Shown one piece after another: positions 1-12,156 of a stretch of DNA of 12,156 nt. Under the pieces are notes generated by a model. The model did not search any database. It was not told where the DNA came from and saw only the letters and a program-made list of their open reading frames with translations. A program made the position numbers and the translations under genes. How positions within the stretch are numbered: the first letter of the stretch is position 1; each line of letters opens with the position of its first letter. Source of the stretch: a virus (lineage: Duplodnaviria > Heunggongvirae > Uroviricota > Caudoviricetes); the IMG/VR virus record IMGVR_UViG_2802429247_000008, positions 1-12,156 of that record; one strand, 5' to 3'.

Positions 1-531
1 TGAGGTGAGCATATCACCTCTGTTCAGGTGGCCAAATTCAGTGTGCCACTTCAGATTGAACGCAGCAGCAAGACGGCTGGCGGTATAGTTAATCCCCTCG
101 TTGCGTGCTTCCGCACGTACTTCAGCCAGGAAAGCATCGGTGGCTGGGGTTTGCGGCATCCTTCCGTCTATTGCGCAGATATACGCATCAGATAGTTCAT
201 CCTGCTCGCCATCAAACACGTAGCAACTCTGTACGATAAATTTATTCAGCCCCGCATTCTCCGCCGCAAGCGCAGCAAGATTAGTCTCCAGCTCTGCAAT
301 GCGTTTGCTTTGGGCTTCCCGTTCATCCAGCAGTGCCAGCACGGTAGCCGGATTGGCTGCTGCTATGAATCGCTTATTGGCGCGATTATCTGGTCCTGAG
401 CATGATGCTATGTAGTAATTTGCGTTCAGTCCGGCATCAGCAATTACCCCATAGTAATCATCAGAACACCATTCGCCAGGGGTTGCATTTTCTGCCGCCA
501 TTCGCAGTGCCTGGTAATTAATGTTGCTCAC
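1..531 (-). CDS. Phage protein, tentatively ead/Ea22-like; first 177 codons only, gene continues past the window start
   Basis: Minus-strand frame is open from 531 down to position 1. GTG at 529-531 is preceded by AGGAGG (revcomp of 538-543) with a 6-nt spacer; an in-frame ATG at 499-501 is an alternative start. Product begins VSNINYQALRMAAENATPGEW and has a coiled-coil-like stretch (DEREAQSKRIAELETNLAALAAENAGL). Family assignment is from memory and unverified. Confidence 0.55.
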   Translation of the reverse strand, partial: MSNINYQALRMAAENATPGEWCSDDYYGVIADAGLNANYYIASCSGPDNRANKRFIAAANPATVLALLDEREAQSKRIAELETNLAALAAENAGLNKFIVQSCYVFDGEQDELSDAYICAIDGRMPQTPATDAFLAEVRAEARNEGINYTASRLAAAFNLKWHTEFGHLNRGDMLTS

Positions 532-823
532 TGGTTGCCTCCTGAAAAATAACTGCATGCCCCAGCTTCTCCGCCAGTGCCAGTTCTGCCTTAGCGCCTG
601 CTGACCGCTGCCAGCCTTTCAGCATGTAAATCGCATCCACACAACGAATCATTGCCATGCAAATATCCATGTAGTGTGGCTGTGTCAGTCCGTCCGGAAG
701 TACTGCCGGACTTAAGACGGTATGCCCTTCCCGTTTCAGTTCCTCTTCCGCCTTGTGGAACGCCTCACGGTTGAAATTTTTATACCCGGTCATCGGACCA
801 GCGATATAAACCCTCACCCTCAC
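518..823 (-). CDS. DUF4406-family protein (nucleoside 2-deoxyribosyltransferase-like fold)
   Basis: 101-aa ORF. N-terminal YIAGPMTG motif followed by EGHTVLSP and a C-terminal LKGWQRSAGAKAELALA segment, the pattern I associate with DUF4406/Rcl-like proteins of lambdoid prophages. GTG start at 821-823 with AGGAGG 7 nt upstream; overlaps the stop of the upstream gene (GTGA). Confidence 0.78.
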   Translation of the reverse strand: MRVRVYIAGPMTGYKNFNREAFHKAEEELKREGHTVLSPAVLPDGLTQPHYMDICMAMIRCVDAIYMLKGWQRSAGAKAELALAEKLGHAVIFQEATSEQH

Positions 824-1236
824 GCCATCACCTCCTGAAAATTACCCTGATAAAACGCCAGCACACGCTGCATAACCTTGCTTTTCCGGCACTCGCGACA
901 GATTATGTTCTGACGTCTGTCGTAGCGGCGTATCTCTCCATCTGGTAATGAATAAATCAGGTCAGGATCGCTCTTTTTCTTCACCGCCGCTTTCGACATC
1001 TTTTCGATGGCTTTTATCCAGTCCTTACGCGCCTGCGCTGAAGGGAATATTCCATACCCTGAACCATATACAACACCACTGGCTACCAGCTCTTTCGTCA
1101 GAACTTCTATCAGATGTCTCGTCGCCCCAATTTCATTTTCCAGTTGTTTACGCGTTTTCCGACCATCTCTGCGTACCAGTTCCACAATGCGCGCCTTCAC
1201 TTCTTCCCGCTGTTCGGAAGTAAAAACTTTTGCCAC
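820..1236 (-). CDS. Hypothetical phage protein, 138 aa, possible winged-helix N-terminus
   Basis: Clean 138-aa ORF with GTG start at 1234-1236 and AGGAGG 4 nt upstream (revcomp of 1241-1246). Its stop overlaps the start of the DUF4406 gene. I recognise no family; the basic N-terminal third and a single CRECR motif are the only features. Confidence 0.7.
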   Translation of the reverse strand: MAKVFTSEQREEVKARIVELVRRDGRKTRKQLENEIGATRHLIEVLTKELVASGVVYGSGYGIFPSAQARKDWIKAIEKMSKAAVKKKSDPDLIYSLPDGEIRRYDRRQNIICRECRKSKVMQRVLAFYQGNFQEVMA

Positions 1237-1276
1237 AAGTCCTCCTGAAAATTACCTCATGATCTGAAATAAACAC

Positions 1277-2224
1277 TTACCCCCTGAAGCCCGGCGGAAT
1301 TTCGGTATCCGGTTCAGAAATGTGATTCACGCAACGCTGTACAGGCGAACGCCCCAGACGAATAACCAGCTCATCCCATTTTTCGCGAAGCTTTGACGGG
1401 CTCATGACGTTTTTTACCCAGAATGGATCCCGCTGTACCCGACCAAACATTTCGCAAATTTGTCTGTGAGTTCTGCCATCCAGCATCCGCATTGTGCGCA
1501 CATCATTGGCCCATGCAGTCCAGTTGGGTTCTTTCGGTCGCATGATTTCGCCATCATCGCTGGCAGCCTGCTCGTAAAGACTCACGATTCGTCCCCAGAT
1601 CCACTGCGCACACGCTAAATCTTCCTGGCTACCCCACTGGCGTTTTTTCGCACTGAACACAACCGCGTCAGGGTGTCGGGTTAAAAAATCCTGTTCAGCC
1701 GTCTGCGAGTCCGGTTGCGAAGCTTCCGGACGAAAAGATCTTTTATCTGACGGATCAGGTTTTAATACTGACGGATCGGGGCCAACCATCGCCCCCCTAT
1801 CCGGCTGTTTTTTATCAATGGTTGATCCATCAAAATTTGAGGGGTCAACCGTTGAGGGGGCAATATTTGACGGGTCATTTTTTGCCTGGCTAATTTTTCT
1901 TTTCGGTTTATATGCCTCACGCGCCGCCGCTGCTGCTGCTTCTAGTTTTTCCACATTAAGACGGTAGATATTGCTTACATTACGCCCACCGACCTTACGT
2001 TCCTCCTTCGTCAGCCAGCCGTTCTTTTCCAGTTCCGCTATCGCAGCTTTAACCGTTGATTCACTCTTTGCCCCAATCTGACGACGAATGGTCTCCACTG
2101 CAGGCCATGACACACCTTCGTCATTGCTGTAATCTGCAAGGCGAGCCATTACTGCCACCCTGGATAAGATCATGCCGGTGAAGGCGCACCCTTCCCAGAC
2201 AAGACCATGAAGCTTGCTGCTCAT
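1277..2224 (-). CDS. Phage replication initiator (HTH N-terminal domain, low-complexity linker, DnaT-like C-terminal region)
   Basis: 315-aa ORF with ATG at 2222-2224 and GGAG 7 nt upstream. N-terminus (GMILSRVAVMARLADYSNDEGVSWPAVETIRRQIGAKSESTVKAAIAELEKNGWL) resembles HTH replication/replisome-organiser proteins. An Ala-run and Pro/Ser/Asp-rich linker is encoded by the iteron-like DNA repeats. Position after the cro-like and ydaT genes matches an O-like role. Confidence 0.8.
   Translation of the reverse strand: MSSKLHGLVWEGCAFTGMILSRVAVMARLADYSNDEGVSWPAVETIRRQIGAKSESTVKAAIAELEKNGWLTKEERKVGGRNVSNIYRLNVEKLEAAAAAAREAYKPKRKISQAKNDPSNIAPSTVDPSNFDGSTIDKKQPDRGAMVGPDPSVLKPDPSDKRSFRPEASQPDSQTAEQDFLTRHPDAVVFSAKKRQWGSQEDLACAQWIWGRIVSLYEQAASDDGEIMRPKEPNWTAWANDVRTMRMLDGRTHRQICEMFGRVQRDPFWVKNVMSPSKLREKWDELVIRLGRSPVQRCVNHISEPDTEIPPGFRG
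1757..1886. repeat. Iteron-like repeats inside the replication gene (candidate origin of replication)
   Basis: Five direct copies of a 10-bp motif: TGACGGATCA 1757-1766, TGACGGATCG 1778-1787, TGAGGGGTCA 1847-1856, TGAGGGGGCA 1862-1871, TGACGGGTCA 1877-1886, at spacings of 21, 69, 15 and 15 bp. One inverted copy (TGATCCATCA, 1832-1841). An AT-rich stretch follows at 1887-1920. The layout is analogous to lambda ori inside gene O. Confidence 0.55.
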
Positions 2225-2247
2225 AAAAAACTCCGAACACCGTGCTT

Positions 2248-2673
2248 TTAGTGCATCACCAGGGCATTTCCCGCCGGACCACCACGATTCATCTGATTGA
2301 AACCAGCGATCGCCACTGCGACAAAATCATCAGCGTCTCTCACCAGTCGTTCCCGCGTCTCCACCAGCTCCCGAAAATAGGCTGAACTGTGGCTGCGCAT
2401 TCGGGCCACCAGCAGAGGTGGCATTGCTTTTTCGATCGCTGGTAACAACGCCTGAATTTTTTTAACCGCATCAGGGGTGTCTTTCTCCACCCAGCGGAAA
2501 ATCTTCTGAGTATTGCGAGCCAGGGCTTCTGGGTGTGAATCGTCGTACAGTTCCGGAAACGTCATACCCAGTTCAAAATAAGCCCGGGTTATTTCAGCTG
2601 CCGGAACTTTTTCTCCGTCCGGATGCGCCCAGGCATTCATCGCCATGCGGATGTGCTCATGCTTGATTTTCAT
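2248..2673 (-). CDS. ydaT: YdaT-family protein (CII-like regulator, historically annotated as a toxin)
   Basis: 141-aa ORF starting MKIKHEHI, directly downstream of and overlapping (ATGA at 2670-2673) the cro-like gene. Size, N-terminus and position match Rac YdaT. Confidence 0.72.
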   Translation of the reverse strand: MKIKHEHIRMAMNAWAHPDGEKVPAAEITRAYFELGMTFPELYDDSHPEALARNTQKIFRWVEKDTPDAVKKIQALLPAIEKAMPPLLVARMRSHSSAYFRELVETRERLVRDADDFVAVAIAGFNQMNRGGPAGNALVMH

Positions 2674-2897
2674 GAATCACTCTTCCTTTCGCTCTGAGTG
2701 GTATCCTTCTTTTTGTAAAGCTCTGGGTTCAAAGATAATTTTCCCTTGGAGTATGCAGCAGCTTCCGCAGCTCTCCCTTTCGGAACTATTTCACCGGGGC
2801 GCTTACGCCACATGTAAATAGCTTCGCGGGTTATCCCATAAAAATCAGCGACCCTCTGAACAGAGCCAAAAAACTGAACAAGTTCATCAACTCGCAT
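2670..2897 (-). CDS. Cro-like HTH regulator (YdaS family)
   Basis: 75-aa ORF transcribed divergently from the repressor. HTH-like segment VADFYGITREAIYMWRKRPGEIVP. ATG at 2895-2897 with AGGAGG 6 nt upstream (revcomp of 2904-2909). Confidence 0.7.
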   Translation of the reverse strand: MRVDELVQFFGSVQRVADFYGITREAIYMWRKRPGEIVPKGRAAEAAAYSKGKLSLNPELYKKKDTTQSERKSDS

Positions 2898-2993
2898 TTC
2901 ACCCTCCTAAAATCTAAGTATTTTTAGATTACAGGATAATTTTTTTTAGGTCAATGCGATCTAAAATAATTTATATTCAACTCGCGGGAGAAA
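2898..2993. promoter_or_regulatory. Divergent promoter/operator region between the cro-like and repressor genes (OR-like)
   Basis: 20-bp near-palindrome AATCTAAGTATTTTTAGATT at 2911-2930 and a further ATCTAAAAT half-site at 2959-2967. Candidate minus-strand promoter: -35 TTGACC (revcomp of 2949-2954), 17-bp spacer, -10 TAATCT (revcomp of 2926-2931) overlapping the palindrome. Candidate plus-strand -10 TATATT at 2972-2977 for the repressor. Confidence 0.55.
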
Positions 2994-3641
2994 ATGATGG
3001 AAAGCCTTGGCATCAGGCTTAAGAAACTCAGAAAAGATAAGGGACTCACCCAAGTAGAACTGGGTAAGCTTTCAGGCGTGACTGGGGTTACTATAGGGTA
3101 CTGGGAGAAAGATCTAAACGAACCCGGCAGCAAAGCTCTAAGTAAGTTAGCCCAAGCATTAGGAACTACTGAGTCCTATCTCCTGTATGGAGTATCGTCT
3201 CCTGAACTATCTTTTGTGCAGAGCAATCCAGGCACCAAGATCCCCTACTTTTCGTGGGGTGACGCGATTTCTTTCCTAATCTTAGAAGGAGAGAAAACAA
3301 TGGGAAATGTCGATAGGATCACCACATTCTTTGATGTAGTGGAAGGTGATTTTGCCGTTTCAATGCCTGATGACACTATGCATAACCCCTCAGGGTCGCC
3401 AAGTATCCCAGTTGGTGCCACTGTGATCCTAAGACCAGGAGAAAGTTATAAAAATGGCAGTATCGTCGCTGTAATAGTTCCAGATCCTCTTACAAATGAA
3501 CCGTCTATGACTATAAAAAAATTAGTTATTGATGGAAAACTTGTGTATTTAAGCCCTCTCAATCCGCGCTATCAATCATCCTTGCTTACGCCAGAGTGTA
3601 AAATTGTTGCCGTAGCAAAAGGTGTACAGTTCAACCTATAA
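2994..3641 (+). CDS. cI/LexA-like prophage repressor (N-terminal XRE HTH, C-terminal S24 peptidase domain)
   Basis: 215 aa. HTH at LTQVELGKLSGVTGVTIGYWEKDLNEP. C-terminal VEGDFAVSMPDD (Ser of the catalytic dyad) and MTIKKLVIDGKLVYLSPLNPRY (Lys of the dyad), closely resembling lambda cI [22 protein letters not shown]. Two tandem ATGs at 2994 and 2997. Confidence 0.85.
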   Translation: MMESLGIRLKKLRKDKGLTQVELGKLSGVTGVTIGYWEKDLNEPGSKALSKLAQALGTTESYLLYGVSSPELSFVQSNPGTKIPYFSWGDAISFLILEGEKTMGNVDRITTFFDVVEGDFAVSMPDDTMHNPSGSPSIPVGATVILRPGESYKNGSIVAVIVPDPLTNEPSMTIKKLVIDGKLVYLSPLNPRYQSSLLTPECKIVAVAKGVQFNL

Positions 3642-3663
3642 CCCTGCCATGTTCTTGAACTTA

Positions 3664-3690
3664 AGGTCGGTTATGCCGACCTTTTTTTTA
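3664..3690 (+). terminator. Rho-independent terminator downstream of the repressor gene
   Basis: Stem GGTCGG (3665-3670) and CCGACC (3676-3681) around a 5-nt loop, followed immediately by an 8-T run (3682-3689). Confidence 0.7.
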
Positions 3691-3708
3691 AATTAATTTA
3701 GATTCCTC

Positions 3709-3737
3709 TTGACTATAAAACTAAATACTTTTAGATT
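3709..3737 (+). promoter_or_regulatory. pL-like promoter with overlapping operator-like site (OL-like)
   Basis: -35 TTGACT (3709-3714), 17-bp spacer, -10 TAGATT (3732-3737). The 20-mer AAACTAAATACTTTTAGATT (3718-3737) matches the OR palindrome at 17 of 20 positions. An extra TTAGATT at 3698-3704. Confidence 0.45.
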
Positions 3738-3908
3738 TATTGCATGCCAACCCATCCCGTCCCCACAGAATGCAGGGCAATACTTCGAGTTACCAGGCAG
3801 TGGTCAGGGGTTAAGTAGCCAGCCCGAGGCGTATGAACATGACGGCGGGATTCAAATTTTGCAGTGCAGCAGTTAGTTCCGCCACCCGGCGTTAAGGGGA
3901 GAGATAAG

Positions 3909-4043
3909 ATGGTGCATTACGAAGTAGTTCAGTATTTGATGGATTGTTGCGGTATCACTTACAACCAGGCTGTGCAGGCTTTACGCAGCAACGACTGGGA
4001 TCTCTGGCAGGCAGAAGTCGCTATACGTAGCAACAAGATGTGA
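3909..4043 (+). CDS. ydaG: YdaG-like small protein (44 aa)
   Basis: ATG at 3909 preceded by GGGGAGAG. Product MVHYEVVQYLMDCCGITYNQAVQALRSNDWDLWQAEVAIRSNKM. Size and position (between repressor and ydaF/sieB) match Rac ydaG. Below the length cutoff of the supplied ORF track. Confidence 0.62.
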   Translation: MVHYEVVQYLMDCCGITYNQAVQALRSNDWDLWQAEVAIRSNKM

Positions 4044-4053
4044 GATTCGCAAA

Positions 4054-4209
4054 ATGCAAAAAATCGACCTCGGCAACAACGAATCCCTGGTGTGCGGCGT
4101 GTTCCCCAACCAGGATGGAACGTTCACTGCCATGACGTATACCAAAAGCAAAACATTTAAAACCGAAACTGGTGCGCGCCGATGGTTGGAGAAGCACACA
4201 GTAAGCTAA
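4054..4209 (+). CDS. ydaF: YdaF-like small protein (DUF1391, 51 aa)
   Basis: ATG at 4054. Product MQKIDLGNNESLVCGVFPNQDGTFTAMTYTKSKTFKTETGARRWLEKHTVS. Matches my recollection of Rac YdaF in size and position. Its stop overlaps the sieB stop convergently. Confidence 0.65.
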   Translation: MQKIDLGNNESLVCGVFPNQDGTFTAMTYTKSKTFKTETGARRWLEKHTVS

Positions 4210-4694
4210 CGATTAAAACGTCTACTCCTGCTGTTCCAGAATAACTTCATAAAATGGGAGTATTTTTCGGTGACGAGATAATAAGAACAGTTTGCGCTAT
4301 CACTCTGATGTTGAATGATGCCCTTCCGTTCTAATTTTTTCATAACCGGGTTACGGCAAGGAGAAGTGATAATAAGATTTCCTGTTTTAAGGAAATCTTT
4401 AAATACAGCGATTTCTTTCTCAGATAAACGAAGCAATACTCGTTGCTCTGGTAGTAATGAATAATGCTTTTGAATATGTGCTCGCAATCTTGAGAAGGAA
4501 ATGGCGACCACGAAAGAAAAGGCAAAAACGATAATCTGAAAGAGCCAAGATATTTCAGTATAAGCATTGAATGCGACAGTAAACTCTTTCGGTATCAGCC
4601 AGAGAGTGAGACCAAAAATGATAATCGTATACATAAGTCTTTCGAGTGGCTCGTTAGCAAAAAGTTTCAACAATGGAGTAAATACATCCAACAT
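4206..4694 (-). CDS. sieB: Superinfection exclusion protein B
   Basis: 162-aa product from ATG at 4692-4694 (MLDVFTPLLKLFANEPLERLMYTIIIFGLTLWLIP...), with hydrophobic membrane segments. The supplied ORF extends 41 codons further upstream to 4817, but that extension looks non-coding. Confidence 0.8.
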   Translation of the reverse strand: MLDVFTPLLKLFANEPLERLMYTIIIFGLTLWLIPKEFTVAFNAYTEISWLFQIIVFAFSFVVAISFSRLRAHIQKHYSLLPEQRVLLRLSEKEIAVFKDFLKTGNLIITSPCRNPVMKKLERKGIIQHQSDSANCSYYLVTEKYSHFMKLFWNSRSRRFNR

Positions 4695-4912
4695 ATCAAT
4701 AACTCTCAACTGTAAGGGTATTGAAATGTTAACACAAGCTCTCGCTGTAGGGGTATAGCCGAGACCACCGAAGCCCGGAGGTGGTGAAATAAAACCGGGC
4801 ACAACACGAAGGCGCATTTCCGATATCCATAAAGAGTCGGTCTTGTCTGTTAAATTTAAATGGTGGGAGTGCGCCTCCGGTTGTAAATAACGACATTGCT
4901 GTGTGTAGTCCT

Positions 4913-4960
4913 GGCGGCATCAGTTTTTTTCTTGAAGTTCGGCTGATGTCCGCCCTTTTT
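4913..4960 (+). terminator. Terminator-like hairpin plus T-run in the sieB/kilR divergent intergenic region
   Basis: Stem GGCGGCATCAG (4913-4923) pairs with CTGATG(T)CCGCC (4943-4954) with one bulge, followed by CTTTTT (4955-4960). The 19-nt loop is large for an intrinsic terminator, so confidence is low. Confidence 0.3.
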
Positions 4961-5135
4961 AAAGTGAATTTTGTGATGCGGTGAATGCGGCTAAGCGCAC
5001 GTGGCACAGTTAAAAGTCATGTTAGTCCTTATTGGTTTGGGTGGGAAAGCCGACTGTAATTGTTAACTGGTTGCAGTCACCTGGAGGCACCAGGCACCGC
5101 ATCAACAAAGTTCATTTGTAAAAATGGAGATAATT

Positions 5136-5357
5136 ATGATTGCACATCACTTCGGAACTGATGAAATACCACGTCAGTGTGTGACTCCTGGCGATTATGT
5201 TCTTCATGAAGGCCGGACATATATTGCCTCGGCAAACAATATTAAAAAGCGAAAACTATATATTCGTAACCTGACCACAAAAACATGCATTACTGACTGC
5301 ATGATTAAAGTTTTCCTCGGTCGTGATGGTTTACCTGTAAAGGCGGAATCATGGTGA
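5136..5357 (+). CDS. kilR: KilR-like killing / cell-division inhibitor protein (73 aa)
   Basis: ATG at 5136 with GGAG 6 nt upstream; the supplied ORF starts 4 codons earlier at 5124 with no SD. Product [35 protein letters not shown].... Position between sieB and ydaE matches Rac kilR. Sequence identity is from memory only. Confidence 0.6.
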
Positions 5358-5527
5358 TGACTAAGAAAATAAAATGTGCTTACCACCTTTGCAATAAAGG
5401 GGTTGAAGAAAGCAAAAGCATTAAAAGACCACTTCATTTCATGCGTGGAGTTATACCAACGACGGAAATGAAAAAATATTGTAGTGAAATCTGTGCCGAA
5501 AAAGACAAGATGGCACACGAACTTTAA
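5357..5527 (+). CDS. ydaE: YdaE-like small Cys-rich (zinc-binding) protein, 56 aa
   Basis: ATG at 5357 overlaps the kilR stop (ATGA). Product [56 protein letters not shown] carries C-x4-C ... C-x3-C. Below the ORF-track length cutoff. Confidence 0.62.
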   Translation: MTKKIKCAYHLCNKGVEESKSIKRPLHFMRGVIPTTEMKKYCSEICAEKDKMAHEL

Positions 5528-5601
5528 TTAACTGACTATGCGAAACTGAATTCATGCCAGCAATGGCAGGGATTCGCTCAACCTTAATTAAGGAGAAAAA
5601 C

Positions 5602-5877
5602 ATGATTACTAATTATGAAACCACTATTGTAACTACTGATGACATTGTTCACGAGGTTAATCTGGAAGGAAAGCGTATTGGCTACGTGATTAAAACAGAA
5701 AATAAAGAAACCCCATTCACTGTAGTTGATATCGACGGTCCATCAGGCAACGTTAAAACACTTCACGAAGGTGTCAAAAAAATGAGCCTGGTGCATATCG
5801 GAAAGAATCTGCCCACAGAAAAAAAAGCCGAATTTCTGGCAACTCTGATTGCAATGAAATTAAAAGGTGAAATCTGA
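5602..5877 (+). CDS. racC: RacC-like protein (91 aa)
   Basis: ATG at 5602 with AGGAG 6 nt upstream; the supplied ORF starts at 5554 with no SD. Product MITNYETTIVTTDDIVHEVNLEGKRIGYVIKTENKETPF.... Lies immediately upstream of recE, as in Rac. Confidence 0.6.
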   Translation: MITNYETTIVTTDDIVHEVNLEGKRIGYVIKTENKETPFTVVDIDGPSGNVKTLHEGVKKMSLVHIGKNLPTEKKAEFLATLIAMKLKGEI

Positions 5878-5882
5878 AAGAA

Positions 5883-5907
5883 ATAGCCTGCGTATGGCGC
5901 AGGCTAT
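5883..5907. repeat. Perfect 10-bp inverted repeat between racC and recE
   Basis: ATAGCCTGCG (5883-5892) and CGCAGGCTAT (5898-5907) around a 5-nt loop. No downstream T-run on the plus strand, so not a canonical intrinsic terminator. Confidence 0.5.
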
Positions 5908-5978
5908 GAACAGTGTGTATCCGGCAAGATCATTCACTGAACAAAACGAATTTTAATCTGAGTTGAGGTTAAAAAACA

Positions 5979-8900
5979 ATGAGCACAAAACCACTCTTCC
6001 TGTTACGGAAAGCGAAAAAATCATCCGGTGAACCTGACGTCGTCCTGTGGGCAAGCGACGATTTTGAATCGACCTGTGCCACTCTGGACTACCTGATCGT
6101 TAAGTCAGGTAAAAAACTGAGCAGCTATTTTAAAGCTGTTGCCACGAATTTTCCTGTCGTTAATGACCTGCCCCCTGAAGGTGAGATCGATTTTACCTGG
6201 AGTGAACGCTATCAACTCAGCAAAGACTCCATGACCTGGGAACTAAAATCGGGAGCAGCGCCAGACGACGTTCACCATCAGGAGAATGCTCAGGAAACCG
6301 AAGAACTGACGGGAGGGCAGGAAGAAAACACACTGGCAGACGCTCACGGGGATTGCCAGGATTGCGAAGTTTCTGTATCTACTTTGCGGTTCACACAGCG
6401 TCTTCTGCACATTTTTACCTATGCGGCCGGGGATCGGAAATACCTGCATCATGCCACCCGAGAACAACGCGAACACATTACTGCTCTTGAGATGGATCAG
6501 GAAAACAGCTATGTCCAGAATCTGCTGTTGGCCATACGCGGCATGGCAGAACCGACAACTCTGGATAATGCCGCCCTGCTCCGCCTGACTGATGCAATTA
6601 AGGGGGTTTTCTCTATCACGAAAAAACATCAGCCCTATGAATTTAAGAATTTCATTTCAGCCTGGCTGGATACCGAACACATTGATCGCGGTCTTCTGAC
6701 AAAAGAATGGCGAAAAGGGAATCGTGTTTCACGCATCACTCGCACGGCTTCCGGTGCTAATGCTGGCGGCGGGAACCTCACCGATCGCGGCGAAGGTTTC
6801 GTCCACGATCTGACGTCACTGGCGCGCGATGTAGCCACTGGCGTACTGGCCCGTTCAATGGACGTGGACATCTATAACCTTCATCCGGCACACGCTAAAC
6901 GCATTGAGGAAATTATCGCTGAAAATAAACCGCCCTTTTCTGTTTTCCGCGACAAATTCATCACCATGCCTGGCGGGCTGGATTATTCACGCGCCATCGT
7001 GGTTGCGTCCGTGAAAGAAGCACCAATTGGGATCGAGGTCATCCCCGCGCACGTCACTGAATATCTGAACAAAGTACTGACTGAAACCGATCATGCCAAC
7101 CCTGATCCGGAAATCGTGGATATTGCCTGCGGTCGCTCCTCTGCCCCGATGCCGCAGCGTGTAACAGAAGAAGGAAAACAGGATGATGAAGAAAAACCGC
7201 AACCATCTGAAACAACGGCAGATGAACAGGGAGAGGCTGAAACAATGGAACCGGACGCAACTGAACATCATCAGGACACGCAGCCGCTGGATGCTCAGTC
7301 ACAGGTAAATTCTGTTGATGCGAAATATCAGGAACTGCGGGCAGAACTCCATGAAGCCCGGAAAAACATTCCATCAAAAAATCCTGTCGATGCCGATAAA
7401 TTGCTTGCTGCATCACGTGGTGAATTTGTTGACGGAATTAGCGACCCGAACGATCCGAAATGGGTTAAGGGGATCCAGACTCGCGATTCTGTGTACCAGA
7501 ACCAGCCAGAAACGGAAAAAACCAGCCCGGATGTGAAACAACCTGAGGCAGTAGTGCAACAGGAACCGGAAATAGTCTGCAATGCCTGCGGTCAGACTGG
7601 CGGAGATAACTGCCCTGACTGTGGGGCGGTGACGGGCGACGCAACATACCAGGAAACATTCGATGAAGAGAATCAGGTTGAAGCTAAGGAAAAAGATCCG
7701 GTGGAAATGGAAGGCGCTGAACATCCGCACAATGAGAATGCTGGCAGCGATCCGCATCGTGATTGCAGTGATGAAACTGGTGAAGCGTCAGCTCCTGTAG
7801 CAACTGAAATCATGTGGCCGTCATATTTCGAGCCTGGCCGCTATGAAAACCTCCCGAACGAGGTTTATCACTCCGCCAACGGAATAAGCAGCACGATGCT
7901 GAAGGATGCCCGTATCAGCCTGATGTATTACCACGGACGGCACATTGCCGGAACTATTCCGAACGAGGAAAGTGATGCACTGCTGCGTGGGCGGATCATT
8001 CACAGCTATGTTCTGGAAACGGATAAATTCGCTGATGAATATGCCATTCCGGTACCGGTTCCTGAATATGTGGTTACTACTTCTAGCGAACTGATCGCCA
8101 TCATTAAAAAACACAATGCCAGTCTGCCAGCACTGATGACACCAGAGCAGATGAAAGAGTGGATCGAAAGCTACAACAGCACTCTTATACAGCCACTGTC
8201 TGTAAGTGCCGGGGCCGAAGAAACAGGCATCCTTTACGGTTCGCTTCCGGTGGAATTTCGGCGTATTCCTGAGGGGGAAAAACACACAGCATCAGCAATG
8301 AAAGCCTGTATTAAAGAATACAACGCAAGCCTCCCTCCTCTGTTGAAAACCAGTGGAGCACGGGAGCAGCTTCTGGATCAAATTGAAACTGTAGACCCAG
8401 AACTGGCAAAAAAAGAACGTGCTAAATCTTTGCCTTACAACATCAGTGGCACAAAAGAGCAATTAACCGAAATCGCACGGAAAATTCGCCCGGAACTGGT
8501 GACACTGGAGGACTGGCAAAAACGCCAGCAAGAAGAAAATGCCGGGAAAACGTTTATCAGTCCGGAGATGTATGAACAGGCAAAAAATATTCACGCGGCA
8601 CTGCAAAACAATACCGATGCAGCAAGGCTACTCAACCACCCGGATCGCAAATCTGAAATCAGCTATTTCGGGTTTGATGAAGAAACCGGGCTGGAAATCA
8701 GGGTCCGTCCTGATATCGAAATCCGGCTGCCATACGAAAGCATTTGCGCTGACGTGAAGTCAGTCAGCCTCGGTTATGTGCGACAGGAACGACTTAAAGA
8801 TCGCCTGCACCGTGAAATTATTGAGCGTGATTATCACCTCAGCGCCGCAATGTATTGCGATGTGGCAAACCTGGACAAATTTTTCTGGATCTTCGTCAAC

Positions 8901-9101
8901 AAAGATGCTGGCTATCACTGGGTGGCAGTCGTGGAAGCCTCGCAGGAACTCCTGGAACTTGGTCGACAGGAATATCGCCGGACGCTACGCCAGATAAACG
9001 AAGCCCTGGAGACAAACAACTGGCCAGCACCGATTACCGAAAGTTATACCGACGAATTAAACGACTTTGATCTTCGTCGTCTTGAAGCACTGAGCATCTG
9101 A
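5979..9101 (+). CDS. recE: Exodeoxyribonuclease VIII (RecE-family 5'-3' dsDNA exonuclease), 1040 aa
   Basis: N-terminus [65 protein letters not shown] is the RecE start as I recall it. Long acidic linker. C-terminal PD-(D/E)xK-type motifs ([22 protein letters not shown]). SD GAGG upstream of ATG 5979. Confidence 0.88.
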
Positions 9102-9112
9102 GGAAGGACACA

Positions 9113-10165
9113 ATGAACGAATTAACTCAACAAGAAAATATTAACTCTAATGTTGCGGTTTTCAGCCCTCAGTCCCTGGCTGCAATTCAGACATTTTCCC
9201 AGGTAATGGCTTCCGGCATGGCTACTGTACCGGAACACCTCCGGGGAAATCCATCAGACTGCATGGCCATCACCATGCAGGCGATGCAGTGGCAAATGAA
9301 CCCTTACGCAGTAGCTCAGAAAACTTTCGTTGTGAATGGTGTGCTCGGATATGAAGCGCAACTGGTTAATGCCGTAATCAGTACTCGTGGGCCGCTAACC
9401 GGGCGTATTGAATATGACTGGTTCGGGCCGTGGGAAAAAATTATCGGGAAATTTGAAATCAGGAAGAGCGACAAAGGGAAAGAATATCGTGTACCTGGCT
9501 GGAAGCTGGCCGATGAAAACGGGATCGGTGTTCGTGTCCAGGCAACACTACGCGGCGAAAGTAAACCACGCGTACTGGAATTACTTCTGGCGCAGGCCAG
9601 AACACGTAACTCAACGCTATGGGCCGACGATCCTCGCCAGCAGCTTGCCTATCTAGCGCTGAAACGCTGGGCGCGCCTTTATTGCCCCGAAGTGATTCTT
9701 GGAGTGTACACCAGGGACGAACTGGACGAGCCACAGGAAAAAATCATTAATCCGGTTCAGGAACATAAAAACACTTCCGCTTGCCGCGCGGAACGTGAAA
9801 CAACAATTATTGAGCAGGATGCCGGGGAAAACTGGATCGATGCTTTCCGTGAACGTATTGAGCAGGCACAAAGCACCGGGGAAACAACAGCACTTCGCCA
9901 GGAAGTGGAAGATCATAAAAATACACTTGGCGCTCTCTATACGGAACTTAAAGGAAAAGTGGTTCAGCGTCATCACCGTCTCAATGCTATTGCCCGTATC
10001 GAGAAGATGATAAATGACCTACCTTCTTCAGGTGATCCAGAAGCAGAACAAAAATTTACTGCTCTGGAAAATACGCTGAATGCTGCCCGGCCACATCTGG
10101 GTGAATTATATGAGGCGTATAAAACGACACTGACAGATATGAAACCAGAATATATCGGCTCCTGA
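9113..10165 (+). CDS. Single-strand annealing protein of the RecT/Red-beta superfamily (Red-beta-like), 350 aa
   Basis: Immediately downstream of recE (11-nt gap, SD GAGGAAGGA). The segment WADDPRQQLAYLALKRWARLYCPEVILGVYTRDELDE resembles lambda Red-beta WQSHPKRMLRHKAMIQCARLAFGFAGIYDKDEAE. It does not resemble K-12 RecT as I remember it. Confidence 0.7.
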   Translation: MNELTQQENINSNVAVFSPQSLAAIQTFSQVMASGMATVPEHLRGNPSDCMAITMQAMQWQMNPYAVAQKTFVVNGVLGYEAQLVNAVISTRGPLTGRIEYDWFGPWEKIIGKFEIRKSDKGKEYRVPGWKLADENGIGVRVQATLRGESKPRVLELLLAQARTRNSTLWADDPRQQLAYLALKRWARLYCPEVILGVYTRDELDEPQEKIINPVQEHKNTSACRAERETTIIEQDAGENWIDAFRERIEQAQSTGETTALRQEVEDHKNTLGALYTELKGKVVQRHHRLNAIARIEKMINDLPSSGDPEAEQKFTALENTLNAARPHLGELYEAYKTTLTDMKPEYIGS

Positions 10166-10175
10166 TATTGACTTT

Positions 10176-10213
10176 GGCGGTGTAGCCTCACCGCCATCAC
10201 AAAATTTTATTTT
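10176..10213 (+). terminator. Hairpin with distal T-rich tract after the annealase gene (weak terminator or attenuator candidate)
   Basis: Stem GGCGGTG (10176-10182) and CACCGCC (10189-10195) around a 6-nt loop. The T-rich tract AAAATTTTATTTT starts 5 nt later, so it is not a textbook terminator. Confidence 0.3.
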
Positions 10214-10228
10214 ATGAGAGAAAAGACA

Positions 10229-10423
10229 ATGCGGTATGAAAAAGTCAAACCATGCCCTTTTTGTGGTTGTCCATCAGTAACGGTGAAAGCCATTTCAGGA
10301 TATTACCGCGCGAAGTGTAACGGATGCGAATCCCGAACCGGCTATGGTGGAAGTGAAAAAGAAGCACTCGAACGATGGAATAAACGAACCACTGGAAATA
10401 ATAATGGAGGTGTTCATGTATAA
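10229..10423 (+). CDS. ralR: Restriction alleviation protein (Lar/RalR family), 64 aa
   Basis: Product MRYEKVKPCPFCGCPSVTVKAISGYYRAKCNGCESRTGYGGSEKEALERWNKRT has the CPFCG ... CNGC zinc-ribbon typical of Lar. The supplied ORF starts 5 codons upstream at 10214; the ATG at 10229 is chosen by homology. Confidence 0.8.
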   Translation: MRYEKVKPCPFCGCPSVTVKAISGYYRAKCNGCESRTGYGGSEKEALERWNKRTTGNNNGGVHV

Positions 10424-10604
10424 AATTACCGCCACTATTGAAAAGGAAGGTGGCACTCCTACTAACTGGACAAGGTACTCAAAAACAAAATTAACCAAAT
10501 CAGAATGCGAAAAAATGCTCTCAGGTAAAAAAGAAGCAGGCGTTTCCAGAGAGCAGAAAGTAAAACTGATAAATTTTAATTGCGAGCAACTTCAGTCCTC
10601 GTGA
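10416..10604 (+). CDS. ydaC: YdaC-like protein (DUF1187), 62 aa
   Basis: ATG at 10416 with GGAGG 5 nt upstream; overlaps the ralR 3' end by 8 nt. Product MYKITATIEKEGGTPTNWTRYSKTKLTKSECEKMLSGKKEAGVSREQKVKLINFNCEQLQSS. The supplied ORF 10344-10604 carries an N-terminal extension I consider spurious. Confidence 0.62.
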   Translation: MYKITATIEKEGGTPTNWTRYSKTKLTKSECEKMLSGKKEAGVSREQKVKLINFNCEQLQSS

Positions 10605-10703
10605 ATTGCATTGTATTCAAATTAAAACTTCATAGCTGATTATTAATAATCAACATCGGGCGTCAATTTCAGTCTAACATTGGCGCCTGCCAGAGGTGAT
10701 GCG

Positions 10704-10919
10704 ATGGCACAAGTAATCTTTAATGAAGAGTGGATGGTTGAATACGGCCTGATGCTTCGCACTGGTCTGGGGGCCAGACAAATTGAAGCATACCGCCAGA
10801 ACTGTTGGGTGGAAGGCTTCCACTTCAAACGAGTATCTCCTTTAGGGAAGCCAGACAGTAAGCGAGGGATTATCTGGTACAACTATCCAAAGATAAATCA
10901 GTTTATCAAAGACTCATGA
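10704..10919 (+). CDS. xis: Excisionase-like protein (Rac YdaQ/XisR type), 71 aa
   Basis: ATG at 10704 with GAGGTG 4 nt upstream. Product [49 protein letters not shown].... Ends 1 nt before the integrase start. Confidence 0.72.
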
Positions 10920-10920
10920 T

Positions 10921-12156
10921 ATGTCTAAATTACCAACAGGTGTCGAGATTCGAGGTAAATACATTCGCATCTGGTTCATGTTTCGAGGAAAACGATGTCG
11001 GGAAACATTGAAAGGCTGGGAGGTTACTAACAGTAACATTAAAAAAGCCGGGAATTTAAGAGCGTTGATAGTTCATGAAATCAATTCCGGTGAATTTGAG
11101 TATTTAAGACGTTTCCCCCAGTCCAGCACTGGGGCAAAAATGGTGACAACGAGGGTCATAAAAACGTTCGGGGAGCTTTGTGATATCTGGACAAAAATTA
11201 AAGAGACAGAGTTAACAACAAACACAATGAAGAAAACGAAATCACAATTAAAAACACTCAGGATAATAATTTGTGAGAGTACCCCAATATCACATATTCG
11301 TTATAGCGATATCTTAAACTACCGGAATGAACTGCTGCATGGAGAAACGCTTTACCTGGATAATCCAAGATCCAACAAAAAAGGAAGAACCGTGCGCACA
11401 GTTGATAACTATATCGCCCTGCTCTGTTCGTTGTTACGTTTTGCGTATCAGTCGGGATTTATATCAACCAAACCATTTGAAGGAGTAAAAAAATTACAGC
11501 GAAACAGAATAAAGCCTGATCCGTTATCTAAAACAGAATTCAATGCATTAATGGAAAGTGAAAAAGGACAGAGCCAGAACTTGTGGAAATTTGCCGTTTA
11601 CTCCGGGCTTCGTCACGGGGAACTGGCTGCTCTGGCGTGGGAGGATGTGGATTTCGAGAAGGGAATTGTGAATGTCAGAAGAAACCTGACGATACTTGAT
11701 ATGTTCGGTCCCCCAAAAACAAATGCGGGGATTCGGACGGTAACACTACTGCGGCCTGCTATTGAAGCACTGAAGGAGCAATACAAACTAACCGGGCATC
11801 ATCGCAAAAGCGAAATCACTTTTTATCATCGGGAGTACGGCAGAACCGAAAAGCAAAAACTGCATTTTGTTTTCATGCCCAGGGTGTGTAACGGAAAACA
11901 GAAACCTTATTACTCGGTAAGCAGTCTGGGGGCGAGATGGAATGCAGCAGTAAAACGTGCTGGTATTCGCCGCCGTAATCCGTACCATACGCGGCATACT
12001 TTTGCCTGCTGGTTGTTGACGGCAGGAGCGAACCCGGCATTTATAGCCAGCCAGATGGGGCATGAAACTGCGCAGATGGTGTATGAAATTTACGGTATGT
12101 GGATTGATGACATGAACGACGAACAGGTAGCTATGTTGAATGCGCGGTTATCGTAG
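10921..12156 (+). CDS. intR: Tyrosine-family site-specific integrase (Rac IntR-like), 411 aa, complete
   Basis: C-terminal catalytic-domain motifs (LRHGELAALAWEDVDF; NPYHTRHTFACWLLTAGANPAFIASQMGHETAQMVYEIYGMW). ATG at 10921 sits 1 nt after the xis stop. The TAG stop is the final triplet of the window. Confidence 0.9.
   Translation: MSKLPTGVEIRGKYIRIWFMFRGKRCRETLKGWEVTNSNIKKAGNLRALIVHEINSGEFEYLRRFPQSSTGAKMVTTRVIKTFGELCDIWTKIKETELTTNTMKKTKSQLKTLRIIICESTPISHIRYSDILNYRNELLHGETLYLDNPRSNKKGRTVRTVDNYIALLCSLLRFAYQSGFISTKPFEGVKKLQRNRIKPDPLSKTEFNALMESEKGQSQNLWKFAVYSGLRHGELAALAWEDVDFEKGIVNVRRNLTILDMFGPPKTNAGIRTVTLLRPAIEALKEQYKLTGHHRKSEITFYHREYGRTEKQKLHFVFMPRVCNGKQKPYYSVSSLGARWNAAVKRAGIRRRNPYHTRHTFACWLLTAGANPAFIASQMGHETAQMVYEIYGMWIDDMNDEQVAMLNARLS

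Follow-up and report, generated by a model that had tools for sequence, protein, structure and literature searches.

The replication origin of phage lambda lies inside the gene for its own initiator, O. Four iterons, bound by the N-terminal domain of O, are annotated in the lambda record at O nucleotides (nt) 349–433, between the parts of the gene that encode the DNA-binding N-domain and the C-domain. The arms of these iterons are dyad-symmetric, the repeats encode a repetitive peptide, an easily melted segment adjoins them, and the gene follows cro and cII. Here we describe a repeat cluster that resembles it in these features, with shorter and weaker melting segments, but lies in the gene of an initiator with a different DNA-reading domain. 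The gene (1277–2224, minus strand; 315 amino acids (aa) according to the list of open reading frames (ORFs) and its translation) was found in a 12,156-nt stretch of Caudoviricetes DNA (IMG/VR record IMGVR_UViG_2802429247_000008, positions 1–12,156; hereafter the window), and the cluster occupies 1748–1877. An initial annotation of the window had proposed a lambda-like origin inside this gene, pointing to the architecture of gene O, which the lambda record bears out. Comparison with related loci supports this proposal, because the location of the repeats in a disordered linker, the constraint on their DNA, their co-segregation with the initiator N-domain and the positions of the phi80 and lambda sites all agree. 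On these comparative grounds, the cluster is probably the initiator-binding array of this prophage's origin.

The locus departs from the lambda plan in several respects. Its initiator has an HTH_36 N-domain, whereas that of lambda is Phage_rep_O, and its repeats are units of 10–12 base pairs (bp) at 15-bp intervals, in contrast to 18-bp sites at roughly 20–24 bp in lambda. It also has one inverted unit, an additional conserved pair of GATC-bearing repeats, a weaker AT block and no P-like gene, and the copy number within its family is very variable. Initiator domain, repeat sequence and spacing thus all differ from those of lambda. The initiator of phage phi80, gp15 (JX871397), has a C-domain homologous to that of the window protein and four annotated gp15-binding sites in the linker directly upstream (8664–8740 of the phi80 locus, L163), and the DNA at the start of its C-domain is similar (AAAAGATCTTCGTCCG). 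By contrast, gp15 has a lambda-O-type N-domain (PF04492), another site sequence, 21-bp spacing, another C-terminal tail and a P-like gene, gene 14, downstream. The window protein thus joins a different DNA-reading head to a phi80-type body, and its gene has repeats where the phi80 initiator binds.

Plasmid iteron origins (P1, pSC101, R6K and RK2) place direct repeats for a winged-helix initiator beside an AT-rich region. Their iterons measure 17–22 bp, recur about every 22 bp, are found outside the rep gene and act together with DnaA boxes, whereas the repeats in the window are inside the initiator gene and come without a conserved DnaA box. The Salmonella phages P22 and L have repeats within their initiator gene, gene 18, from which their origins were predicted or demonstrated, with short units of 11 bp; the initiator and the repeat sequences differ from those in the window, and these phages have their own DnaB-type helicase (gene 12). 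The genome paper of phage L calls the repeats in gene 18 a likely origin by similar reasoning (PMC8022706). The gene content beside cI, a YdaT-like gene and then an HTH_36 gene, recurs in the non-lambdoid Eru replication regions of Shiga-toxin phages: Eru5, 6, 8, 11 and 13 carry HTH_36 proteins, and Eru8 and Eru11 also a YdaT-like gene (PMC8951638). The 2022 survey of these regions sorts them by gene content, describes no origin and states that their replication mode is unknown (PMC8951638).

An O-like initiator with a different N-domain

The 315-aa ORF has both the place and the annotation of a lambdoid initiator. The genes run cI, cro, a cII-like gene (YdaT) and the initiator, which is the lambdoid position of the replication gene. 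The protein matches PHROG 391 ('replication initiation O-like', E = 4e-113) and, as its sole Pfam match, HTH_36 (PF13730; aa 25–71, E = 5e-8); its RefSeq label is only 'helix-turn-helix domain-containing protein'. PF04492 (Phage_rep_O) is not matched by the N-domain, which therefore falls outside the O N-domain family. In role and layout the protein resembles O, yet it is no member of that family.

In an AlphaFold model computed from an alignment of 20 sequences, the protein begins with a winged-helix N-domain of four helices and a beta wing (aa 1–104; 1913–2224, minus strand), modelled at a predicted local distance difference test (pLDDT) score of 72–88. It is followed by a disordered linker (aa 109–173; 1706–1900, minus strand; pLDDT <50), a helical C-domain (aa 175–292; 1349–1702, minus strand) and a disordered tail (residues 293–315). 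The whole repeat cluster falls in the linker, between the C-domain and the winged-helix N-domain, the presumed reader of the repeats. In a BLASTP alignment, the C-domain is 36% identical to phi80 gp15 over 122 residues (aa 180–299, E = 2e-26). The best Foldseek matches of the N-domain are winged helix-turn-helix regulators of the PadR/ArsR/MarR type; they are weak (E about 4e-3) and generic, and at E >0.001 we do not claim a specific structural relative.

Architecture of the repeat cluster

The initial annotation had reported five direct copies and one inverted copy of a 10-bp motif, TGASGGRKCA, within 130 bp and at 15- and 21-bp spacings. The window holds four exact matches, all on the plus strand (1748, 1838, 1853 and 1868); dinucleotide shuffles predict 0.17, and none of 200 shuffles reached four. 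Allowing one mismatch adds 1769 (plus strand) and 1823 (minus strand, the inverted copy), which gives the reported set of six at 1748–1877. The range originally assigned to the array, 1757–1920, clipped the first of these copies (1748–1757). Six further one-mismatch matches are scattered over the window, with 4.3 expected by chance. Successive copies start 21 bp (1748 to 1769), 54 bp (1769 to 1823) and then 15, 15 and 15 bp apart, so that both reported spacings are present along with one longer gap. Tandem Repeats Finder detected a 15-bp period with 3.2 copies at 1830–1877. No second cluster of the motif was found in the 12 kb scanned, which is the window and stops short of the late genes.

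On the coding strand the motif reads TGAYCCSTCA, and the six copies lie at gene nt 348–477. The array unit, rTTGAyCCsTCAA-nnn, is five codons long (xDPSN), and the linker peptide quoted in the initial annotation (NDPSNIAPSTVDPSNFDGS...PDPSVLKPDPSD) agrees with the translation. In gene orientation, the array opens with three units on the minus strand: unit 1 (1868–1877; TGACCCGTCA, in which GAC CCG TCA encodes DPS), unit 2 (1853–1862; TGCCCCCTCA, APS) and unit 3 (1838–1847; TGACCCCTCA, DPS). Unit 4 (1823–1832, plus strand) is inverted; it reads TGATGGATCA on the coding strand, encodes DGS and is the minus-strand match of the motif. A possible degenerate fifth unit, read directly from the sequence, follows in register (1808–1817, minus strand; TGATAAAAAA). 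A G+C-rich spacer (1779–1807, minus strand; CAGCCGGATAGGGGGGCGATGGTTGGCCC on the coding strand) connects the array to a distal pair of repeats, also on the minus strand. Distal repeat 1 (1769–1778; CGATCCGTCA) and distal repeat 2 (1748–1757; TGATCCGTCA) lie 21 bp apart, each holds a GATC, and both read (C/T)GATCCGTCAG.

Units 3 and 4 together form an inverted repeat (1815–1855) with 20-nt arms that are 85% complementary. The DNA fold of 1740–1885 has a z score of −2.75, which comes wholly from the adjacent direct and inverted units. The motif at the junction, TCAAAWTTTGA, occurs in 31 of 60 linkers, and we do not claim a conserved hairpin.

Constraint on the repeat DNA

The cluster rarely arises from the encoded protein alone. 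When synonymous codons were redrawn from the window's own usage with the protein held constant (5,000 draws), at least four exact copies appeared in 3 of the redraws (P about 0.0006), and at least six copies at ≤1 mismatch in 7 (P about 0.0014).

Homologues gathered from one genome per species included 61 with an HTH_36 N-domain, whose linkers comprise 60 distinct sequences; they come from Escherichia, Shigella, Salmonella-like genomes, Edwardsiella, Erwinia, Pantoea, Morganella, Providencia, Proteus, Yersinia, Kluyvera, Tatumella and others. The linker of every HTH_36 homologue consists of 5-codon units and, after them, a conserved ...DPSV...DPS... pair, and codon choice within the repeats differs strongly from that in the rest of the same genes. 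The first Ser of the unit is TCT in 87% of cases (13% elsewhere in the genes) and the second Ser is TCA in 75% (15% elsewhere). Asp is GAC in 80% of cases in the array, against 46% elsewhere, and GAT in 95% in the distal pair, against 54%; Lys is AAA in 99% of cases in the repeats and 64% elsewhere. The distal-pair codons GAT CCR TCA are almost fixed family-wide. As a control, we analysed invariant N-domain residues of the same genes and found their codons scrambled (Ser columns at 1.9–2.4 bits, Asp at 50/50, Pro at 1.55 bits); the set has therefore diverged enough to randomize free synonymous sites.

The peptide encoded by the unit, by contrast, is variable. DPS, DAS, DTS, DGS, EGS, EGL, PPT, VPS and VAS all occur, while the TGA...TCA arms stay. 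Reading the DPS motif in reverse complement, in the same frame, yields the DGS, EGS and EGL units; such inverted units point to selection on the DNA, since a merely repetitive peptide fails to explain them. No HTH_36 homologue was found that keeps the peptide linker without the DNA repeats, the case that the initial annotation had singled out as speaking against its proposal. Together with the codon data, this indicates that the repeats are constrained as DNA, beyond the need of the peptide: one stretch would hold two codes, a linker peptide that is free to vary and a DNA sequence that is frozen.

Repeat number, which the initial annotation had suggested comparing, along with spacing, across homologous prophages, shifts in whole 15-bp steps. 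Close relatives at 91–95% identity have four or five units, the extra 15-bp unit giving a protein of 320 aa, and the homologue lengths of 303, 305, 308, 310, 315 and 320 aa correspond to differences of whole array units. Across the family, unit number ranges from 2 to about 10. In two natural variants, P0004 and P0016, the missing piece is precisely VLKPDPS (7 aa, 21 bp), a single period of the distal pair. One distal site seems to be tolerated, and so do two array units.

Repeats and N-domains are inherited together

About 60 HTH_36 homologues keep TGA-N4-TCA units despite visibly different C-terminal halves and tails. The types of C-terminal half were told apart by eye; single-linkage BLAST clustering merged all of them. 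The initiator N-domain accompanies the array in every homologue. No flanking gene does so consistently, because the neighbouring ORFs of the repeat-keeping homologues fall into 9–10 unrelated groups. The HTH_36 N-domains form two subfamilies that differ in the flanks of the motif (rTTGA(S3n)TCAA versus TCTGAC-nCg-TCAAAA), and the spacing of the distal pair is 24 bp in subfamily B and 21 bp in the window. Phage 720R4, with a diverged HTH_36 domain, has TGAC-N3-TCA units at a 15-bp period and has kept the GATCCGTCAG pair.

Phages with other N-domains carry other repeats. In phage mEp460, which has the same C-domain and another N-domain, five copies of GGTCAAAATG lie in the linker. Phage 689R5 has a third N-domain, GTCACG repeats and only the tail in common with the window protein. 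We scanned 16 genes for repeats. Fifteen of them join another N-domain to the shared C-domain or to the DnaT-like tail; the sixteenth, from phi80, served to validate the method, and there the scan recovered three of the four annotated sites. In each of the 15 genes, the top repeated 10-mer is present in 4–6 copies just upstream of the C-domain; these repeats are mostly 21–24 bp apart, and their sequence differs between N-domain types (examples are GGTCAAAATG, TCGCGGAACC, AGATTCACCA, CCAGAATGCG, CGGCTCTTAA and GTCACG). At least five other N-domain types on the same C-domain (in 689R5, the tail only) carry such private repeats, at loci L081, L082, L101, L105, L107–L109, L112, L113, L115, L118, L151, L158 and L159, and several of the arrays precede an A+T-rich stretch that encodes TE(N/I)TTE peptide repeats. 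The private arrays look like unannotated origins too.

The similarity of other phages' DNA to the C-domain of the window breaks off at about 1744–1777, at the edge of the cluster. Where the C-domain begins, a DNA segment, AAAAGATCTT(TT)CGTCCG (1722–1740 in the window), is near-identical in phi80 (L163, 8765–8790) and mEp460 (L081). It is shared despite different upstream modules and coincides with the start of the similarity to other phages; this segment may be a preferred crossover site.

Melting segments and GATC sites

A nearest-neighbour stability profile in 30-bp windows placed three of the four least stable windows of the gene in or beside the cluster. The gene is least stable over the 30 bp at 1809–1838 (77% AT), which cover the 3′ end of the array with the possible fifth unit. 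A second easily melted segment (1738–1767; 70% AT) spans distal repeat 2 and reaches toward distal repeat 1. A third low-stability window (1890–1919; 70% AT) corresponds to the region that the initial annotation had described as an AT-rich stretch following the array. This stretch is real (1878–1915; 68% AT versus 53% for the whole window), but in gene orientation it lies upstream of the array, on the side opposite to that in lambda, and it is missing from subfamily B homologues. For both reasons we rejected it as the unwinding element and prefer the downstream segment.

In lambda O, phi80 gene 15 and mEp460, the least stable 30-bp window lies directly downstream of the iterons, sites or repeats; in lambda this window, next to iteron 4, is the known AT-rich region. 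The profile of an HTH_36 homologue (L089) has its least stable window over the distal pair, and only the melting segment at the distal pair holds its position across both subfamilies. The segment at about 1738–1778 is therefore our candidate for the unwinding element.

GATC (Dam) sites at 1737, 1753, 1774 and 1824 place four such sites in 91 bp, compared with one per 253 bp in the window. Those in the distal repeats depend on the GAT codon for Asp that is 95% fixed across genera. GATC sites in an origin recall P1 oriR, and their concentration here may reflect control of the element by Dam methylation or SeqA.

A predicted route to initiation

We infer from these comparisons that the initiator binds the repeats, that the DNA unwinds there and that the element fires. 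In the proposed mechanism, the winged-helix HTH_36 N-domain would bind the four 15-bp-phased units, which have the core TGA-N4-TCA and of which one is inverted, as well as the two conserved GATCCGTCAG sites that lie downstream at 21-bp spacing. The resulting multi-protein complex would distort the DNA and open adjacent A+T-rich segments, of which the one at about 1738–1778 is conserved in the family. The C-domain and the tail would then bring in the host helicase.

The C-terminal tail, VQRCVNHISEPDTEIPPGFRG (last 21 codons; 1280–1342, minus strand), resembles the extreme C terminus of host DnaT (...VNTVSEPDSQIPPGFRG; PDB 2ru8, 6aep and 9zbt; E = 0.013–0.035 over 21 residues). The same tail ends the initiator of phage 689R5, whose body is otherwise different, and this tail or variants such as IPAGFRG, IPEGFRG and SGFRT are found at the end of many family members; others end in W-rich tails. 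The tail may mimic DnaT and recruit a host partner. The function of the last residues of DnaT is not discussed in a 2026 preprimosome paper or a 2026 review, and we regard a role for the DnaT-like tail as a lead.

A more specific version of this mechanism would make the locus a distinct design of lambdoid origin. An HTH_36 initiator would read 2–10 dyad units of 10–12 bp, 15-bp phased, in both orientations and with neighbours on different faces of the helix; the GATC pair would gate opening, and the DnaT-like tail (last ~17 residues) would capture the host helicase machinery. We put this forward as a speculation that, taken as a whole, is rather doubtful. If it were true, the origin would fire via the replication-restart route and not through a P- or DnaC-type loader.

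Weighing the origin reading and its alternatives

Several observations count against an origin in the cluster. The 15-bp period of the array (about 1.4 helical turns) does not give the two-turn spacing of 20–24 bp, so the geometry of the lambda nucleoprotein complex is not simply transferable; repeats in the other N-domain types examined and in the lambda and phi80 records are mostly 21–24 bp apart, a spacing that in the window only the distal pair has, at 21 bp. The melting segments are short and, at 66–77% AT, weaker than the lambda block at 83%. The codon counts given above are not independent, as homologues share descent and units arise by duplication. No P-, DnaC- or DnaB-like gene lies downstream of the initiator, where the DUF977 and DUF4406 genes come next. 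Among 50,697 sequenced phage records, identity to the N-domain and linker of the window protein never exceeds 57%; this N-domain subtype has so far been seen in prophages only, and many of its carriers may be defective prophages. Finally, we found no published origin for HTH_36-type initiators in the literature on iterons, lambdoid phages, PF13730/HTH_36 and SfII/SfIV/phiP27.

If the cluster is not the origin, the repeats could be binding sites in another role, such as autoregulation or copy-number control by the initiator (titration or handcuffing), exclusion of related phages or binding of another protein of the module, with the origin elsewhere. Plasmid iterons serve control as well as initiation, methylation of the conserved GATC pair could serve as a regulatory switch, and the AT-rich elements are modest. 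We nevertheless consider a purely non-origin role unlikely: the cluster occupies the position of the annotated origin sites of lambda and phi80, the 12-kb window offers no other cluster of the motif, and the array is tracked by no flanking gene, whereas the initiator N-domain is always with it. The repeats might also matter only as peptide, a flexible tether rich in Pro, Ser and Asp that expands by replication slippage and leaves the DNA repeats as a passive by-product. That the units are exactly five codons long and in frame, that the linker is predicted to be disordered and that copy number varies as slippage would make it vary all fit this explanation. It is very unlikely all the same, because across genera the peptide varies while the TGA...TCA arms and the synonymous codons are fixed, synonymous sites elsewhere in the same genes are randomized, and codon resampling rarely yields the array. 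Moreover, N-domains that are not related to one another come with equally unrelated repeats at this position, and slippage leaves the inverted units unexplained.

A third explanation sees the cluster as a recombination hotspot or module junction, kept for mosaic exchange and without a role in initiation. The end of phage similarity at the cluster edge and the downstream AAAAGATCTT(TT)CGTCCG segment common to phi80 and mEp460 would suit such a junction. The shared sequence, however, lies outside the repeats, at about 1722–1740; the repeats themselves differ completely by N-domain type and thus give no homology for exchange between types; and a junction needs neither strict phasing nor codon fixation. 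We regard this explanation as highly improbable. An initiator-binding array within the initiator gene remains the reading that we favour.

Other candidate elements in and around the gene were rejected. The only match in the window to the relaxed DnaA-box pattern TTWTNCACA (TTTTCCACA; 1947–1955, plus strand) lies about 70 bp from the array; chance alone predicts about 0.7 such matches, the codons at this site (NVEKL) are different in subfamily B, and it is probably accidental. A single weak terminator-like site (1871–1888) does not exceed the number seen in shuffled sequence. A search of 1200–2400 revealed no promoter-like sites, and the initiator gene contains no match to an Rfam family.

Prophage context

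The window covers the early genes of an E. coli prophage that is lambdoid and Rac-like. Domain searches identified an integrase (10921–12156, plus strand, extending past the window end) and RecT (350 aa; 9113–10165, plus strand), and a RecE-like exonuclease VIII of 1,040 aa with Exonuc_VIII and PDDEXK-like domains is encoded at 5979–9101 (plus strand); the presence of these three confirms the Rac-like identity. Other genes are those for SieB (4206–4817, minus strand), a cI-type repressor (2994–3641, plus strand), a Cro-like protein (2670–2897, minus strand) and the YdaT/cII-like protein (2248–2673, minus strand), followed beyond the initiator gene by those for a DUF977 protein ('Ren-like'; 820–1236, minus strand) and a DUF4406 protein (518–823, minus strand). 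The window also contains a full-length Rfam match to RalA (10422–10600, minus strand; 215 bits, E = 8e-52), the antitoxin small RNA of the Rac RalR/RalA type I pair. An ORF beside this match (10214–10423, plus strand) could be ralR.

The initiator gene is common in its host species: it is present in 1,515 of 5,426 complete E. coli genomes at ≥80% coverage.

Implications

An origin at this place extends what is known and overturns nothing, because the principle has been known since lambda and phi80 and is in itself not surprising. The prediction defines short targets, namely the array (1823–1877), the distal pair (1748–1778) and the candidate unwinding segments. Related modules with HTH_36 and YdaT proteins occur in Shiga-toxin phages. 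For the HTH_36 family as a whole, and for about five sister N-domain types, the predicted arrangement would provide a rule for annotating origins.

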